From Flavobacteriaceae bacterium (lineage in GTDB: Bacteria > Bacteroidota > Bacteroidia > Flavobacteriales > Flavobacteriaceae), in NCBI GenBank assembly GCA_947446865.1, contig CANFHX010000004.1, forward strand, positions 5,901 through 69,900: 64,000 nucleotides of DNA. Reading direction: 5' to 3'. The notes under the pieces are model-generated. The model ran no database searches. It was not told the origin of the DNA and was given only the letters and a program-made list of their open reading frames with translations. Made by a program: the position numbers and the translations under genes. Positions 5,228 through 40,179 of this stretch are shown here, in pieces (position 1 is the stretch's first letter; each line of letters begins with the position of its first letter).

Positions 5228-5494
5228 TTAATTCATTCTTCCGATAGCGCAACTTACAAACGATTTTGCTTTAGTGCCAAAAGGATTTTTTTCTCCTACT
5301 TCGGGGTATCCATTGGCTTTCAAGGTTTCTTTCACTTCATGTAGAGCCAAATCGTCTTGATAATCAAAGGTAACCGAATCGTTTTCTACATCCACCATTA
5401 CTCCAGAAACGTTAGCCAAATCACTCACCTTCGTAGTAATCGTATTAGCACAACCATTACATTTCAAATTTTGTATATACAGAGTTGTTGTCAT
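5228..5494 (-). CDS. Heavy-metal-associated (HMA/CopZ-like) domain protein
   Basis: QNLKCNGC CxxC motif in an HMA pattern. C-terminal extension ends SFVSCAIGRMN. Confidence 0.88.
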   Translation of the reverse strand: MTTTLYIQNLKCNGCANTITTKVSDLANVSGVMVDVENDSVTFDYQDDLALHEVKETLKANGYPEVGEKNPFGTKAKSFVSCAIGRMN

Positions 5495-5543
5495 AATTAT
5501 TTATTTTAGATAAACAAAATTAAACAAATAACATCTTATTTTG

Positions 5544-5559
5544 TGTAACATAAGTCACA
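5544..5559 (-). promoter_or_regulatory. Candidate Crp/Fnr-family binding site upstream of the HMA gene
   Basis: Minus strand TGTGAC-TTAT-GTTACA, 21 nt upstream of -7 octamer TAATTTTG (5522-5515). Same motif and spacing at 36943 and 37888. Confidence 0.65.
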
Positions 5560-35759: not shown

Positions 35760-35853
35760 AAATGGATATACTATTATTTGATGTAAATCTATTAAAAAAA
35801 ATTATTACTACTTTTGTTTATTATATTTAGTTTTTAAATTTAATTTTAAAAAA

Positions 35854-36315
35854 ATGCAATCCAAAGCAAGCACCCCCGAAGAATACTTATCCGAACTGCC
35901 AGAGGACAGAAAAATTGTTGTTCAAAAAATTCGAGAAGTAGTATTACAAAATTTACCCATAGGCTTTAAAGAAGTCATTTCCTATGGAATGTTAGGATAC
36001 GTAGTTCCGCATGAAATCTATCCTGATGGTTATCATTGTACTCCCAAGTTGCCTTTGCCTTTTTTTAATATCGCATCGCAAAAAAACTCGGTAAACATCT
36101 ACAATTTAGTAATTTATGCAAACAAAGACATTCACGATTGGTTTGTATCCGAATATCCAAAACATAGTAAATACAAGCTAGACATGGGCAAAGGCTGCAT
36201 CCGATTTAAAAAACTAGATGCTATTCCGTATGAATTAATAGGGGAATTAATATCAAAAGTTTCGGTAGAACAATGGATTGAAATGTATGAAAACACGATT
36301 AAAAACAAAAAATGA
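35854..36315 (+). CDS. DUF1801 (YdhG-like) protein
   Basis: ISYGMLGYVVP, IASQKN, DMGKGCIRFKK. Confidence 0.85.
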   Translation: MQSKASTPEEYLSELPEDRKIVVQKIREVVLQNLPIGFKEVISYGMLGYVVPHEIYPDGYHCTPKLPLPFFNIASQKNSVNIYNLVIYANKDIHDWFVSEYPKHSKYKLDMGKGCIRFKKLDAIPYELIGELISKVSVEQWIEMYENTIKNKK

Positions 36316-36947
36316 AGCAATTACTGACACAAATTTACAGCAGTGTATTTGAAGAAAAACTGGTTGAAGAATTGGCTTTAGTTTCTACTTTACATTCCTT
36401 TGAATCTGGAGATATCATTATTGATTTTGGAAATACAATAAATCAAATGCCATTATTGGTTAATGGTGCCATAAAAATTTTAAGAGAAGATTTTGAGGAA
36501 GGCGAATTACTATTGTATTTTATTGAAAAAGGAGATACCTGCGCCATAACTTTAACCACTTGCATCAACCAATCTAAAAGTGAAATTCGAGCAACTGCAG
36601 AAACTAATGGTCAGGTAGTAATGATTCCATTAGAAAAAATGCAGGAGTGGTTGGGTAAATATACAAGTTGGCGCAATTTTATTTTTAATAGTTATAATAA
36701 TAGGTTAAAAGAAATGCTCTCGGCTATTGATACACTAGCTTTTATGAATATGGAAGAGCGATTATTGCACTATTTAATAGACAAGGCAAAAATTAATCAT
36801 TCTCGAGAAATAAATAGTACGCATCAAGAAATTGCTTACGATTTGCATAGTTCAAGAGTGGTTATTTCTAGGATGCTCAAAGTTTTAGAAAACAAAGGAT
36901 GCCTACAATTACACCATGGCTCTATAACCTTAACCAGTCGAAAGTAA
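36312..36947 (+). CDS. Crp/Fnr-family transcriptional regulator
   Basis: cNMP-like domain (GAIKI...LLYFIEKGDTC) and HTH THQEIAYDLHSSRVVISRMLK. ATGA overlap with the DUF1801 gene. Confidence 0.92.
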   Translation: MKQLLTQIYSSVFEEKLVEELALVSTLHSFESGDIIIDFGNTINQMPLLVNGAIKILREDFEEGELLLYFIEKGDTCAITLTTCINQSKSEIRATAETNGQVVMIPLEKMQEWLGKYTSWRNFIFNSYNNRLKEMLSAIDTLAFMNMEERLLHYLIDKAKINHSREINSTHQEIAYDLHSSRVVISRMLKVLENKGCLQLHHGSITLTSRK

Positions 36948-36958
36948 CATTTGTAGCA
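36943..36958 (+). promoter_or_regulatory. Candidate Crp/Fnr-family site upstream of the TauE gene
   Basis: AGTAAC-ATTT-GTAGCA, 20 nt before TAAATTTA (36979-36986). Confidence 0.55.
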
Positions 36959-37018
36959 AACAATAATTGAATTAGTTGTAAATTTACCCTTTAATCCTAT
37001 TAACCCAAATCAAACTAA

Positions 37019-37822
37019 ATGGAACTAAATTCTATTTTTGGATACCTATCTGCCGTACTTGTTGGAGTTACTTTAGGATTAATTGGCAGTGGCGGATCGA
37101 TTTTGTCTGTTCCAATATTAGTTTATATCATGGGTGTCGAACCCATTTTGGCTACAGCCTATTCCCTTTTTATTGTTGGAACCACTGCCCTATTTGGTGG
37201 TTTTCAAAAGGCAAAACAAAAACTAGTCGATTTTAGAAAAGTAGTTTTATTTGGTATCCCAACTATTCTTTCGGTATTCATAACCAGAAAAATAATTGTT
37301 CCTAGAATACCGGAAATAGTATTTTCAACTTCAGTTTTCACCTTACATAAATCGGTTTTCATCATGATTATTTTTGCAATAGTCATGATTTTTGCTTCCA
37401 TTCGAATGATAAAACCTTTGCAAATTGAAATTCAAGAAGGGGAAGGAAAACTAAATTACATTAAAATCTTTATTCAAGGAGTATTAATTGGTTTAGTTGC
37501 AGGATTTGTAGGTGCTGGTGGGGGATTTTTAATCATTCCAGCCTTGTTGTTTCTTGCCAAAACTCCAATGAAAATGGCAGTAGGAACCTCTCTTTTTATT
37601 GTTGCTGCCCAATCTTTAATTGGGTTTCTTGGAGATTTAAGACCCGAACAAAACCTAAATTGGAATTTACTAATAACTTTTACAATCTGCTCCATAATAG
37701 GTGTTTTTACAGGAAGTTATTTATCTAAAAAAATAGAAGGCGAAAAACTAAAAACCGGATTTGGATGGTTCGTTTTAGCAATGGGAATTTACATTATTTT
37801 AAAAGAAATAATTTTAAAATAA
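37019..37822 (+). CDS. TauE/SafE-family sulfite exporter
   Basis: GLIGSGGSILSVP and GFVGAGGGFLIIP repeats, AVGTSL, about 8 TM helices. Confidence 0.92.
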   Translation: MELNSIFGYLSAVLVGVTLGLIGSGGSILSVPILVYIMGVEPILATAYSLFIVGTTALFGGFQKAKQKLVDFRKVVLFGIPTILSVFITRKIIVPRIPEIVFSTSVFTLHKSVFIMIIFAIVMIFASIRMIKPLQIEIQEGEGKLNYIKIFIQGVLIGLVAGFVGAGGGFLIIPALLFLAKTPMKMAVGTSLFIVAAQSLIGFLGDLRPEQNLNWNLLITFTICSIIGVFTGSYLSKKIEGEKLKTGFGWFVLAMGIYIILKEIILK

Positions 37823-37887
37823 TTCACTAAAGATTATGTTTATTTTAGGATGTTACTTTTAACGTTCCTTGTTTTATTTACTAACTT

Positions 37888-37903
37888 TGTAACAACTGTT
37901 ACT
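37888..37903 (+). promoter_or_regulatory. Candidate Crp/Fnr-family site upstream of the MBL-rhodanese gene
   Basis: TGTAAC-AACT-GTTACT, 21 nt before TACTTTTA (37925-37932). Confidence 0.65.
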
Positions 37904-37951
37904 TACATTACCGAGTAACCTTATTACTTTTACTTTTTAATTTAGTTTATT

Positions 37952-39358
37952 ATGAAAATTGAACAAATTTATACTGGTTGTTTAGCACAAGGTGCTTATT
38001 ATATTGAGAGCAATGGCGAAGTTGCAATTATTGACCCATTACGCGAAGTGCAACCCTATATTGACCGAGCCAATGCCGATAACGCATCTATAAAATATAT
38101 TTTTGAAACCCATTTCCATGCTGATTTTGTTAGCGGTCACGTGACTTTATCCGAAAAAACTAAGGCTCCAATAGTTTTTGGTCCAAATGCTAATCCGAGT
38201 TATGATGCAGTTGTAGCCACTGACGGACAAGTTTTTCCGCTTGGAGATATTACCATAACTTGCTTGCATACTCCTGGACATACTATGGAAAGTGCCTGTT
38301 ATTTGTTAAAAGACAAAGACGGAAAAGATTATGCTTTATTTAGTGGAGATACGGTGTTTTTAGGTGATGTTGGAAGACCCGATTTAGCCCAAAAAGCAGC
38401 CCACATGACACAAGAGGAATTGGCTGGTTTATTATTTGATAGTATTCAAACTAAAATAATGCCCTTAGCAGATGATGTAATTATATACCCAGCACATGGT
38501 GCCGGTAGCGCTTGTGGAAAAAATTTAAGCAAAGAGACTGTTGGAACCATTGGCGATCAAAAAGCTACTAATTATGCGCTTCGTGCCAACATGACCCGTC
38601 AAGAATTCATTAACGAAGTTACCGATGGCTTGCTGCCTCCTCCTGCTTATTTTCCGATGAATGTGAAATTAAATAAAGAAGGTTATGGCAATGTAGAAGA
38701 CATCATAAGCAATGCCAAAGCGCTAAATGCGAAAGATTTTGAACTTATAGCCAATGAAACCAGTGCTTTGATTTTGGATGTTCGTAGTGAAGATGAATTT
38801 GCTAAAGGACATATTCCTAATTCCATTTTTATCGGAATTAATGGTGCTTTTGCCCCTTGGGTTGGTGCTTTAATTTTGGATATTAAACAACCCATTCTTT
38901 TGGTAACCCCAATTGGAAAAGAAGCAGAAACTATAAAAAGATTAGCCCGTGTTGGATATGATGCCACCATTGGATATTTGGAAGGTGGATTGGAAACATG
39001 GAAAAATGCGGGCTTCGAATTGGATACAATAAATTGTATTTCTGCTGAAACTTTAGAAGAAAAAATACAAGAGAATATAGCAGTTTTTGATGTTAGAAAA
39101 CCAGGCGAATATACTGCCGAACATCTTAACGAAGCACCTTCTACTCCTTTGGATTTTTTAAACGATCATTTATCGGAATTTCCAAAAGAGAAAGAATTTT
39201 ATCTTTTTTGCGCTGGCGGATACCGCTCTATGATTGCGGCGTCCATCCTTAAAGCAAGAGGATACGATAATGTAATTAATGTAAATGGCGGATTTGCTGC
39301 CATCAAAAAAACCGGAATTAAAACAACAAATTTTGTTTGTCCATCTACTATTAAATAA
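37952..39358 (+). CDS. Persulfide dioxygenase-like MBL-fold protein fused to two rhodanese domains (CstB/Blh-like)
   Basis: ETHFHADFVSG, HTPGHT, GDVGRPDL, PAHGAGSACG. Rhodanese LDVR...GHIP and DVR...FCAGGYRS. Confidence 0.9.
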   Translation: MKIEQIYTGCLAQGAYYIESNGEVAIIDPLREVQPYIDRANADNASIKYIFETHFHADFVSGHVTLSEKTKAPIVFGPNANPSYDAVVATDGQVFPLGDITITCLHTPGHTMESACYLLKDKDGKDYALFSGDTVFLGDVGRPDLAQKAAHMTQEELAGLLFDSIQTKIMPLADDVIIYPAHGAGSACGKNLSKETVGTIGDQKATNYALRANMTRQEFINEVTDGLLPPPAYFPMNVKLNKEGYGNVEDIISNAKALNAKDFELIANETSALILDVRSEDEFAKGHIPNSIFIGINGAFAPWVGALILDIKQPILLVTPIGKEAETIKRLARVGYDATIGYLEGGLETWKNAGFELDTINCISAETLEEKIQENIAVFDVRKPGEYTAEHLNEAPSTPLDFLNDHLSEFPKEKEFYLFCAGGYRSMIAASILKARGYDNVINVNGGFAAIKKTGIKTTNFVCPSTIK

Positions 39359-39549
39359 TGAAAAATATTTTATTTACAAATTGGAATATAATGCGAATTA
39401 TTCGTTTGGCTTTTGCGATAGTATTATTTACTCAAGCGGCTCAAAAGTTCGAGTGGTATTTAATTATATTTGGATTGTTTTTTCTGGTTCAAGCAGTATT
39501 TAATTTTGGATGTAGTGCCAACGGATGTGCAATTCCTAAAAAGAAATAA
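39358..39549 (+). CDS. Small 2-TM protein (DUF2892/YgaP-like)
   Basis: MRIIRL, two TM helices, C-terminal FGCSANGC. Translationally coupled to the upstream gene. Confidence 0.75.
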   Translation: MKNILFTNWNIMRIIRLAFAIVLFTQAAQKFEWYLIIFGLFFLVQAVFNFGCSANGCAIPKKK

Positions 39550-39551
39550 AG

Positions 39552-39857
39552 ATGAATAGTTCCTTTCAAGCTCTAATAGCTTCCGAAAAACCAGTATTAA
39601 TAGATTTCTATGCAACTTGGTGTGGTCCTTGCAAAATGCTTTTCCCAATATTAAAAGAAGTAAAAGACACTTTGCAAGAAGAACTATCAATTATTAAAAT
39701 TGATGTAGATAAAAACCAAGAAATTGCAGCATTATATCAAGTTCGAAGCGTTCCAACACTACTATTATTTCAAAACGGAAAAGTAATTTGGCGGCAATCG
39801 GGAGTAGTTCCTAAAGAAGAAATAATACAAAATATTAAGGCTAAAAATATTTCCTAA
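39552..39857 (+). CDS. Thioredoxin
   Basis: FYATWCGPCK, SVPTL. Confidence 0.93.
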   Translation: MNSSFQALIASEKPVLIDFYATWCGPCKMLFPILKEVKDTLQEELSIIKIDVDKNQEIAALYQVRSVPTLLLFQNGKVIWRQSGVVPKEEIIQNIKAKNIS

Positions 39858-39945: not shown

Positions 39946-40128
39946 ATGAAAAAAGTAATTTCAGTTATGGCGGTTGCGGCATTCTTATTTGCTGCTAATG
40001 TAAATGCTCAAGAGCAAAAACCAAAAGAAGAAAAAAAAGAGTGTAGCAAAAAAGAAATGAAATCTTGTGATAAAGATAAAAAAGGTGGATGTTGCGCTGG
40101 AAAAAAAGCAGCAGAAAAAAAATCTTAA
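39946..40128 (+). CDS. Small secreted Lys/Cys-rich peptide
   Basis: Signal peptide ending VNAQ, mature part KKECSKKEMKSCDKDKKGGCC. Own -7 element TATATTTG and terminator. Confidence 0.8.
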   Translation: MKKVISVMAVAAFLFAANVNAQEQKPKEEKKECSKKEMKSCDKDKKGGCCAGKKAAEKKS

Positions 40129-40149: not shown

Positions 40150-40179
40150 AAGTGCTTGAGAAATCAGGCACTTTTTTTT
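40150..40179 (+). terminator. Rho-independent terminator
   Basis: aagtgcttga-gaaa-tcaggcactt plus T run. Confidence 0.85.

Follow-up and report, generated by a model that had tools for sequence, protein, structure and literature searches.

Among the dedicated reactive-sulfur sensors, most rely on two cysteines that become joined by di- or polysulfide bridges (PMC13467558). CstR of the CsoR family, SqrR, BigR and YgaV of the ArsR family, and FisR share with the locus described here a gene set of SQR, persulfide dioxygenase-rhodanese proteins, TauE-like exporters and sulfurtransferases, and the regulator here has conserved cysteines (C77 always, together with C83 and/or C84) that might react in a similar way. 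However, the regulator of this locus belongs to another protein family and has another DNA-binding fold. While CstR and SqrR repress and FisR activates via sigma-54, this regulator is likely to be a class II activator that works with the housekeeping sigma factor. The original prediction had set it against the CstR/SqrR/BigR repressors usually described for such genes, which holds for most of the described sensors but not for FisR, a sigma-54 activator (PMC13467558).

Closer relatives are found among the Crp/Fnr regulators. CAP uses Glu181 to contact the fourth base pair of TGTGA (PMC10187061). A co-crystal of the CAP E181F variant is held in the PDB as 1RUO. The variants E181V, E181L and E181K reportedly have altered specificity for A:T at this fourth position, as Ebright et al. 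are said to have described in 1984 and 1987. NtcA is an earlier example of a protein with Val naturally at the Glu181 position; it reads GTA-N8-TAC, where the corresponding base is A, and in class II promoters this site has its centre at -41.5 (PMC3898017). The HcpR2 proteins are predicted Crp/Fnr regulators of hcp in Bacteroides, Clostridia and Thermotogales (Rodionov et al., 2005, PMC1274295). The Clr of Sinorhizobium meliloti is also of the Crp family, and in its site the conserved C6/G11 enclose a variable spacer of 4 nt; Glu181 is replaced in its F-helix RPKVNR (PMC10187061).

The locus lies in the window, i.e., the whole 64,000-nucleotide stretch of DNA that was analysed, and comprises the following features.

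35854..36315, + strand: DUF1801 gene, stop overlapping the regulator start codon (ATGA)
36312..36947, + strand: Crp/Fnr-family regulator, 211 aa (Pfam cNMP_binding and HTH_Crp_2; HMMER against CAP and NtcA; 43 orthologues)
36944..36957, no strand: box 1, degenerate, GTAAC-ATTT-GTAGC, 2 core mismatches (GTAGC for GTTAC)
36979..36986, + strand: putative tauE -7 element TAAATTTA, 20 nt after box 1 (21 nt from its core)
37019..37822, + strand: TauE/SafE-family anion exporter, sulfite-exporter family (Pfam PF01925, E = 4.5e-41)
37889..37902, no strand: box 2, exact GTAAC-AACT-GTTAC, core 10/10, centre 37895.5
37925..37932, + strand: putative -7 element TACTTTTA, 21 nt after box 2 (22 nt from its core)
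37952..39358, + strand: persulfide-dioxygenase-like protein with a metallo-beta-lactamase (MBL) fold and, fused to it, two rhodanese domains (Pfam)
39358..39549, + strand: 63-aa two-helix membrane protein, YgaP-like/DUF2892 (weak Pfam match)
39552..39857, + strand: thioredoxin with WCGPC (Pfam, E = 2e-30)

The five genes named in the original prediction (crp-like, tauE, MBL-rhodanese, 2-TM protein and trx) are indeed consecutive and all on the + strand, with coordinates and Pfam in agreement. The NCBIfam similarity of the MBL-rhodanese protein to GloB and Blh stays below threshold, and for the 63-aa protein an orthologous regulon member gives a strong DUF2892/YgaP-like match (E = 1e-20). Because its stop overlaps the regulator start, the DUF1801 gene is probably co-transcribed with the regulator gene, and the same neighbour occurs at loci L019 and L081-L086. 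A consensus -7 element, TACTTTTG, is located at 35809-35816 upstream of the DUF1801 gene, and no box was found upstream of this element.

From its domains, the regulator can be placed in the Crp/Fnr superfamily, with a cNMP-binding-like beta-roll and a C-terminal Crp-type winged helix-turn-helix. The scores are 31.4 bits for PF00027 (cut-off 27.5) and 33.1 bits for PF13545 (cut-off 27), and the structures of CAP, NtcA and Vfr are matched over the full length. The recognition helix SSRVVISR, with R182, V183 and R187, aligns to the CAP helix without gaps in HMMER, placing Val183 opposite Glu181, where Val had been predicted, and also opposite the NtcA Val. The motif SRVV[IV]SR is invariant in the 43 orthologues, Val being present in 43/43. 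Such a natural substitution is not new, since NtcA has the same residue and a GTA-N8-TAC site at -41.5. As judged from sequence, the regulator type is conserved across Bacteroidota. A literature search found no publication describing this regulator type.

The NtcA is the second-best match among solved structures, and its helix STRVTVTR resembles SSRVVISR. However, the two are only distantly related in sequence, the regulator scoring 40.7 bits on NCBIfam TIGR03697 against a cut-off of 245, and NtcA is a cyanobacterial, 2-oxoglutarate-sensing regulator of nitrogen genes without pocket cysteines, whereas the present one occurs in a freshwater Flavobacterium next to sulfur genes and has a site that additionally fixes C6/G11 (GTAAC...GTTAC). 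Identity with NtcA was rejected on the equivalog score, the host and the sulfur regulon. With CRP/CAP it shares the fold, the half-site register and the equivalents of R180/R185, but the cAMP-binding residues are not conserved, cysteines lie in the pocket region, and the regulon is local and dedicated instead of a global catabolite control; CRP proper was rejected on these cysteines and on NCBIfam PRK11753 (60.5 bits, cut-off 266). The FNR, in which a group of N-terminal cysteines and a central one hold a [4Fe-4S] cluster and whose site is TTGAT-N4-ATCAA, was rejected because N-terminal cysteines are absent (the cysteines at 77, 83 and 84 are in the beta-roll) and the site is GTAAC, not TTGAT. 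The HcpR2 has an identical DNA consensus, GTAACnnnnGTTAC, in the 2005 prediction, and is likewise substituted at the Glu181 position, but by Pro (PMC1274295) and not by the Val of all orthologues here; moreover, it co-occurs with hcp and usually controls hcp only, in contrast to the sulfur-detoxification regulon. PF03063 (hcp) matches control genomes but nothing in this genome, which is 95% complete, and in family f20, which has the most genomes in the phylum sample (63), no homologue of the regulator turned up at E <= 1e-25. The motif agrees with HcpR2, but the residue and the link to hcp do not, and this identity was rejected. The Clr differs in binding cAMP/cGMP, in its half-site (TGTT vs TGTAAC) and in Lys197, which reads C6 and is replaced here by Val184.

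The regulator dimer would read the conserved palindrome TGTAAC-N4-GTTACA in the register of Crp/Fnr sites such as TGTGA-N6-TCACA of CRP, with the invariant R182, V183 and R187 as putative readers; Val183 stands in place of CAP Glu181, and the fourth base of each half-site is correspondingly A, not G. Box 2 (TGTAAC-AACT-GTTACT with its flanks, 37888-37903) matches the core exactly. In Flavobacterium psychrophilum, the sigma-A -7 element TAnnTTTG occupies -12 to -5 (PMC9723704), and with a spacing of 22 nt the box centre is therefore at about -41.5; the start of the MBL-rhodanese operon is predicted near 37937. The class II position that the original prediction gave for box 2 (near -41) is thus supported.

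Exact boxes with a -7 element are very significant in Flavobacteriaceae, with 308 occurrences against 12 matches of the reversed control in 121 genomes. The spacing between box and -7 element is 22 nt in 119/125 sites (95%) in a search permitting 21-23 nt, which gives class II promoter geometry with a predicted centre of -41.5 overlapping -35/-33. The box occurs in 94/103 genomes with an orthologue of the regulator and in 1/16 without, and the order crp-box-tauE-box-MBL-rhodanese was seen again in about 20 of 30 loci. Among Glu-type relatives, GTGAC/GTCAC half-sites of the same geometry precede MBL-rhodanese, TauE, DUF2892 and SQR genes. L112, a Glu-type member nested within the Val clade, carries GTGAC-N4-GTCAC, against GTAAC-N4-GTTAC in its sister L105 (Val); the covariation is imperfect, since mixed or A-type half-sites occur at some Glu-type loci. 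This co-occurrence, the adjacency and the Val/Glu-to-A/G covariation support the regulator and the GTAAC-N4-GTTAC box as a putative pair, as had been proposed from the window.

In the same genome, exact or 1-mismatch sites precede RND, rhodanese, SQR-like, DUF2892 and HMA genes, and one of them, the distal box, lies in the window itself.

5228..5494, - strand: CxxC protein of 88 aa with an HMA domain, preceded by the distal box
5515-5522: putative -7 element TAATTTTG of the distal box, 22 nt downstream of it
5545..5558, no strand: distal box, 1 mismatch, GTGAC-TTAT-GTTAC read on the - strand, 22 nt upstream of TAATTTTG

This HMA gene adjoins split YeeE/YedE genes, and HMA genes and YeeE halves turn up again behind boxes in other genomes. 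A paralogue, 65% identical to the regulator, is encoded elsewhere in the genome, with the same box before the RND pump. Both paralogues have the same recognition helix, so that the promoters are not assignable to one or the other.

Across Flavobacteriaceae, TauE is the commonest first gene behind the box (30, with 29/30 cluster members) and MBL-rhodanese the second (19), followed by SQR-like (10), rhodanese (9), OEP (7), 1-Cys peroxiredoxin (7) and YeeE halves (6 + 6). The remaining genes encode CydA/CydB, DUF2892, TPMT, HMA, SorA-like and SoxB-like proteins; an RND pump, SQR-like flavoproteins, YeeE/YedE and cytochrome bd are also encoded behind boxes. The counts support a regulon in which genes for sulfide, persulfide, sulfite and thiosulfate predominate, and most targets agree with the reactive-sulfur regulon of the original prediction; its cytochrome bd and RND pump are not specific to sulfur and would also fit other signals. 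Cytochrome bd oxidase is reported to be sulfide-insensitive.

The cysteines of CAITLTTC, proposed earlier as the sensor, are C77 and C84. Both are present, but the family motif has three pocket cysteines (C77 in 43/43, C83 in 41/43 and C84 in 42/43 orthologues), and since residue 83 of the window copy is Thr, its pair is a reduced version of the motif. The pocket of this copy is remodelled (I79, T83, N86), and with C83 lost as well, its way of sensing may depart from that of the rest of the family. The window lineage retains C77 and C84 only, and the Glu-type branch mostly C77 and C83. The structure model of the regulator (pLDDT 52) is too poor for placing the cysteines.

Taken together, these data are best explained, and we consider this probable, by an uncharacterised Crp/Fnr branch that reads TGTAAC-N4-GTTACA and exerts class II activation on a sulfur-detoxification regulon in response to a reactive-sulfur signal at the pocket cysteines. 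The regulator, with or alongside its paralogue, would most likely activate the MBL-rhodanese/YgaP-like/thioredoxin operon from a strong box and tauE from a weak one; further likely targets are the HMA CxxC protein by YeeE/YedE, the single-domain rhodanese, the SQR-like flavoprotein and the RND efflux pump.

The weak box is the least certain part. Box 1 (AGTAAC-ATTT-GTAGCA, 36943-36958) overlaps the TAA stop of the regulator gene at the predicted place, but it is degenerate, and its core spacing of 21 nt is one base below the canonical value. Composite sites with 2 mismatches are not enriched in this genome (31 vs 86 in the reversed-pattern control), and therefore box 1 is not significant alone. 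It could be a decayed relic or a chance match, leaving box 2 as the only functional one in the window and tauE to read-through from DUF1801-crp across a gap of just 71 nt, in which no terminator-like hairpin was found. We regard this as possible but somewhat doubtful: box 1 sits at the exact orthologous spacer position, where a box with <=1 mismatch occurs in 18/18 other crp-tauE loci; its distal half-site and -7 element are intact; and it is identical in two relatives of 91% identity (L081/L082), with a 1-mismatch site as its counterpart in one of 87% identity (L083). Its orthologous position and this conservation in close relatives are what speaks for box 1 as a candidate site.

The same regulator and boxes would also accommodate a repressor that acts at the -33 region and is released by reactive sulfur like CstR, SqrR and BigR. 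The box does overlap this region, TG is retained at -34/-33 in roughly one site out of two, the dedicated sulfur sensors described so far are mostly repressors (PMC13467558), and NtcA represses some promoters too (PMC3898017). However, the rigid 22-nt phasing suits contact between protein and RNA polymerase better than a mere blocking of the promoter, there is no family of sites lying across the -7 element or the start, and -41.5 is the canonical class II position of CRP, FNR and NtcA. Since C is fixed at -35, the box replaces the consensus -33 TTG, and we infer activation, repression being unlikely. Another reading keeps the regulon but changes the signal to a shortage of oxygen, to oxidative or thiol stress or to thiophilic metals, all of which are met with alongside sulfide, the cysteines holding a Fe-S cluster, a metal or a plain disulfide. 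Cytochrome bd oxidase, 1-Cys peroxiredoxin, thioredoxin, the HMA CxxC protein and the RND pump are not sulfur-specific, so that a redox, oxygen or metal signal would also fit; the family has three conserved cysteines, and FNR-type relatives sense oxygen through cysteine-bound clusters. Against this, the targets that are found most often and are best conserved handle sulfur specifically (TauE, MBL-rhodanese, SQR-like, rhodanese, YeeE/YedE, SorA-like, SoxB-like), the subsets C77 + C84 or C77 + C83 are easier to reconcile with a switch of two cysteines than with a cluster held by three, and the cysteines sit in the effector pocket without an N-terminal FNR-like cluster motif. A signal other than reactive sulfur is therefore held to be unlikely.

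Under the preferred reading of class II activation by reactive sulfur, the family-wide regulon would form a route for detoxification and export from sulfide through persulfide to sulfite and thiosulfate, together with cytochrome bd oxidase, and the likely signal would be sulfide-derived reactive sulfur sensed by C77 plus C83 and/or C84 in the effector pocket. More tentatively, and a little short of an even chance, this may be the first Crp/Fnr-type protein dedicated to sensing sulfide/persulfide, in which sulfane sulfur would bridge or persulfidate C77 and C83/C84 where CRP binds cAMP and thus act like an effector, whereupon the dimer would become a class II activator for the entire sulfide-oxidation and export regulon across Bacteroidota; natural minimal switches would be the copy in the window (C77 + C84) and the branch with Glu (C77 + C83).

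The locus in the window holds five consecutive genes on the + strand, as the original prediction had stated, and the ORF listing and Pfam assigned them as follows, with the promoter element upstream of the regulator:

35809-35816, consensus -7 element TACTTTTG serving the DUF1801-crp pair, with no box
36312-36947, +, Crp/Fnr-type regulator (cNMP_binding and HTH_Crp_2)
37019-37822, +, TauE
37952-39358, +, metallo-beta-lactamase (MBL) fold with two fused rhodanese domains
39358-39549, +, 63-aa two-helix protein, weakly YgaP-like/DUF2892
39552-39857, +, thioredoxin

The regulator ATG overlaps the stop codon of the DUF1801 gene (ATGA) at window position 36312. Because the -7 element of this pair has no box, autoregulation in the window was ruled out and the regulator is probably expressed constitutively in its host; in some other genomes, the regulator gene itself is preceded by a box. 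Directly 3' of the thioredoxin gene, window 39946-40128 (+) encodes a protein of 60 aa that has a signal peptide and a tail rich in Lys and Cys, and the close relatives L081-L083 have a gene of the same size likewise 3' of trx. This small protein may serve the cluster as a periplasmic partner that binds thiols or metals. A terminator-like hairpin lies beyond it at window 40150-40173; the terminator output of the promoter/terminator scan was kept, while its sigma-70 promoter calls were disregarded as inapplicable to Bacteroidota promoters.

Two GTAAC-N4-GTTAC boxes had been predicted at this locus, and they are of unequal quality. The site before the MBL-rhodanese gene (box 2, 37889-37902) is exact, GTAAC-AACT-GTTAC, and is followed after 22 nt by the -7 element TACTTTTA at 37925-37932, with a predicted start at about 37937, 15 nt 5' of the ATG. 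The site before tauE (box 1, 36944-36957), which overlaps the regulator stop codon, is degenerate: GTAAC-ATTT-GTAGC carries two core mismatches and lies 21 nt from TAAATTTA. Within the window, the bare 14-mer with at most one mismatch was found three times against 1.3 expected, which is not significant, so the evidence must come from comparison. In the host genome, sites with two mismatches were not enriched (31 vs. 86 for the reversed control pattern), and therefore only its location and its conservation speak for box 1. Relatives with 91% identity share the identical box, the 87%-identity relative has a one-mismatch site, and the orthologous crp-tauE position has a box with at most one mismatch in all 18 other loci. 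As a site, box 1 is weak. Flavobacterium at large shows the opposite of the window, as the crp-tauE box is good (at most one mismatch in 47 of 51 loci), whereas the tauE-MBL box is frequently absent (at most one mismatch in only 14 of 41 loci).

Of 150 Flavobacteriaceae genomes sampled, 128 encode a regulator homologue with 45-59% identity. The regulator gene is directly adjoined by exact boxes in a set of 30 retrieved loci, typically in the order crp-box-tauE-box-MBL-rhodanese. The composite pattern of an exact box, 21-22 nt and TAnnTTT occurred 308 times in 121 genomes, compared with 12 occurrences of the reversed control. Among the 103 genomes that encode an orthologue (E <= 1e-49), 94 have at least one composite site, as does 1 of 16 genomes that lack an orthologue, a co-occurrence that is clear but qualitative only, because kin genomes are not independent. 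The predicted match between boxes and regulator thus holds across orthologous loci. The same type of regulator, with the same helix, cysteines, adjoining box and sulfur genes, is also encoded, at about 40% identity, in further families of the class and of the phylum, but is not universal even inside Flavobacterium. Its database names are all generic ("Crp/Fnr family transcriptional regulator"). The source of the window is a freshwater Flavobacterium, the nearest record being a lake metagenome-assembled genome with 91% identity; a contig search for further homologues matched solely Flavobacterium, at 65-72% identity. Candidate cultivable carriers of the system are F. lacus, F. croceum and F. 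mekongense, with 67-70% identity. Boxes also recur every 237 nt in an apparent tandem-repeat coding region at contig ends of the host genome (G000:C17:736-1921 and C30:33717-34191); they are unrelated to the regulon and give false positives in bare-motif searches.

The spacing of these sites is nearly uniform. With gaps of 21-23 nt allowed between the box core and the -7 element, 125 non-redundant sites were collected, and the gap was 22 nt in 119 of them; the first ORF begins, as a rule, 20-45 nt past the -7 element. Transcription is predicted to start 12 nt past the T of every -7 element. The sigma-A consensus TAnnTTTG of Flavobacterium psychrophilum spans -12 to -5 (PMC9723704), which would centre the box at -41.5, where CRP, FNR and NtcA, the cyanobacterial nitrogen regulator, act as class II activators (PMC10187061, PMC3898017). 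This agrees with the predicted centring near -41. In 78% of sites the base at the distal flank is T (TGTAAC), while the promoter-proximal flank has no symmetric A and often shows TG at about -34/-33, where a -33 element would be expected. Together, the comparative data strongly support a regulon with a predicted class II architecture.

The 125 sites precede genes for 176 proteins, which were clustered and named with Pfam and NCBIfam. Clusters with at least three members are as follows:

TauE, 30 members
MBL-rhodanese, 19 members
SQR-like flavoprotein, 10 members (closest NCBIfam model type III SQR, with a score under the cut-off)
Single rhodanese, 9 members
Outer-membrane efflux protein (OEP) of an RND pump, 7 members
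1-Cys peroxiredoxin, 7 members
Cytochrome c/Tll0287-like protein, 6 members
Split YeeE/YedE, two clusters of 6 members each
The regulator itself, behind a box, 5 members
Cytochrome bd subunit I, 5 members
Cytochrome bd subunit II, 3 members
DUF2892, 4 members
TPMT-type methyltransferase, 4 members
HMA CxxC protein, 3 members

Smaller clusters of one or two members each include a SorA-like sulfite dehydrogenase, a SoxB-like protein and DoxX. By their predicted functions, the boxed genes are a coherent set for detoxification and export of sulfide, persulfide, sulfite and thiosulfate, plus cytochrome bd oxidase, which is reportedly insensitive to sulfide. TPMT-type (thiol/halide) and ICMT/PEMT-like membrane methyltransferases recur in box-controlled operons of other genera (L073:8325-8915 and related loci), which suggests that methylation of sulfide or thiols may belong to the response.

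In the host genome, exact composite sites precede three units: the MBL-rhodanese operon (box 2), a 102-aa rhodanese on another contig and an RND pump. The pump operon, OEP-MFP-RND, lies directly 3' of a regulator paralogue with 65% identity (G000:C1:194022-200569). This paralogue, outside the window, keeps the canonical three cysteines and is a lineage-specific duplicate inside the Flavobacterium clade of the tree. Boxes before OEP genes are seen repeatedly in other genomes as well. One-mismatch sites were about threefold enriched (12 vs. 4 for the control); those with correct spacing precede the gene of an SQR-like 486-aa flavoprotein and, at 5545-5558, the HMA gene at window 5228-5494 beside split YeeE/YedE, and one with 21-nt spacing precedes a gene for a DUF2892 protein.

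The recognition helix SSRVVISR was aligned to NtcA (STRVTVTR) and to that of CAP, and as the HMMER alignment to CAP has no gaps, Val183 stands opposite CAP Glu181. All 43 orthologues share R182, V183, V184, S186 and R187. E181V variants of CAP prefer A:T at the fourth position of TGTGA. Glu181 itself touches this base pair (PMC10187061). Relatives with Glu at this position have GTGAC/GTCAC half-sites in the same arrangement, with 22-23 nt, before MBL-rhodanese, TauE, DUF2892 and SQR-like genes. Sites of the A/T type made up 63 of 76 near Val-type regulators, and 11 of 13 sites near Glu-type regulators had a G/C half-site, a correlation that is imperfect because mixed sites exist. The tree requires at least five Val/Glu changes; in one of them, the Glu-type L112, nested in the Val clade, has GTGAC-N4-GTCAC, and its Val-type sister L105 has GTAAC-N4-GTTAC. 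These natural variants support a link between helix residue and base, as read from covariation. A hybrid box, GTGAC-AAAT-GTTAC (G000:C40:12011), lies in the host genome 21 nt from TACCTTTG, before a gene whose 128-aa product is rich in Cys; in other Flavobacterium genomes this hybrid sequence adjoins Glu-type paralogues, and no Glu-type paralogue was detected in the host genome at E <= 1e-20.

Known regulators share parts of this picture. The DNA consensus predicted in 2005 for HcpR2, a predicted regulator of hcp, is identical to the box described here (PMC1274295). HcpR2 differs in having Pro at position 181 and in its association with hcp; the window regulator has Val, its regulon differs and no hcp gene was found in the host genome, so membership was rejected. 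Membership in CRP and NtcA was likewise rejected, as the cut-offs of the curated models were not reached. Even so, NtcA already provides an established case of natural Val at CAP position 181, paired with an A-type site centred at -41.5 (PMC3898017). The proposed natural Glu181Val substitution is right in substance but not unprecedented.

The sensor domain has the family consensus GDTCAMT-x2-CC-x-G...KSEIRA, with C77 in 43, C83 in 41 and C84 in 42 of the 43 orthologues. A HMMER alignment to NtcA and a by-eye ungapped alignment to CAP would place these cysteines in the beta6-beta7 effector-pocket region, at about CAP G71 and E77/E78. The window protein has Thr83, Ile79 and Asn86; position 83 is Ser in the 91% relative and still Cys in the 87% relative. 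Most proteins of the Glu-type branch have C77 and C83 and lack C84. In 3DV8, a relative with a solved structure, Cys occupies the positions equivalent to 77 and 83. The common denominator of the family, C77 plus one neighbouring cysteine, would fit a two-cysteine switch of the CstR or SqrR kind (PMC13467558) more readily than a cluster ligated by three Cys. A structure predicted from 33 close homologues had a pLDDT of 52 (about 30 in the sensor domain), so it is unusable for cysteine geometry.

Dedicated reactive-sulfur sensors were assigned in a 2026 review to the CsoR, ArsR and Fis families (PMC13467558). CstR, SqrR/BigR and FisR belong to these other protein families and were characterised in phyla other than Bacteroidota, and for Crp of A. 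baumannii the reports go no further than incidental persulfidation. In the literature we found no Crp/Fnr-type sulfur sensor, no such Flavobacterium regulon and no description of sulfide sensing in Bacteroidota, a phylum with a major part in the breakdown of organic matter that encounters sulfide in waters, sediments and guts. If true, a cysteine-based activator of the Crp/Fnr type would be a fourth sensor family. The specificity of the recognition helix could readily be tested on the naturally occurring Val and Glu variants, which come with matching A and G boxes. The box, 22 nt and -7 element would also, if true, give a simple sequence rule for sulfide regulons in genomes and metagenomes, one that points to unexpected candidates for sulfide defence: the RND pump, the thiol/halide methyltransferase, HMA CxxC proteins and cytochrome bd.
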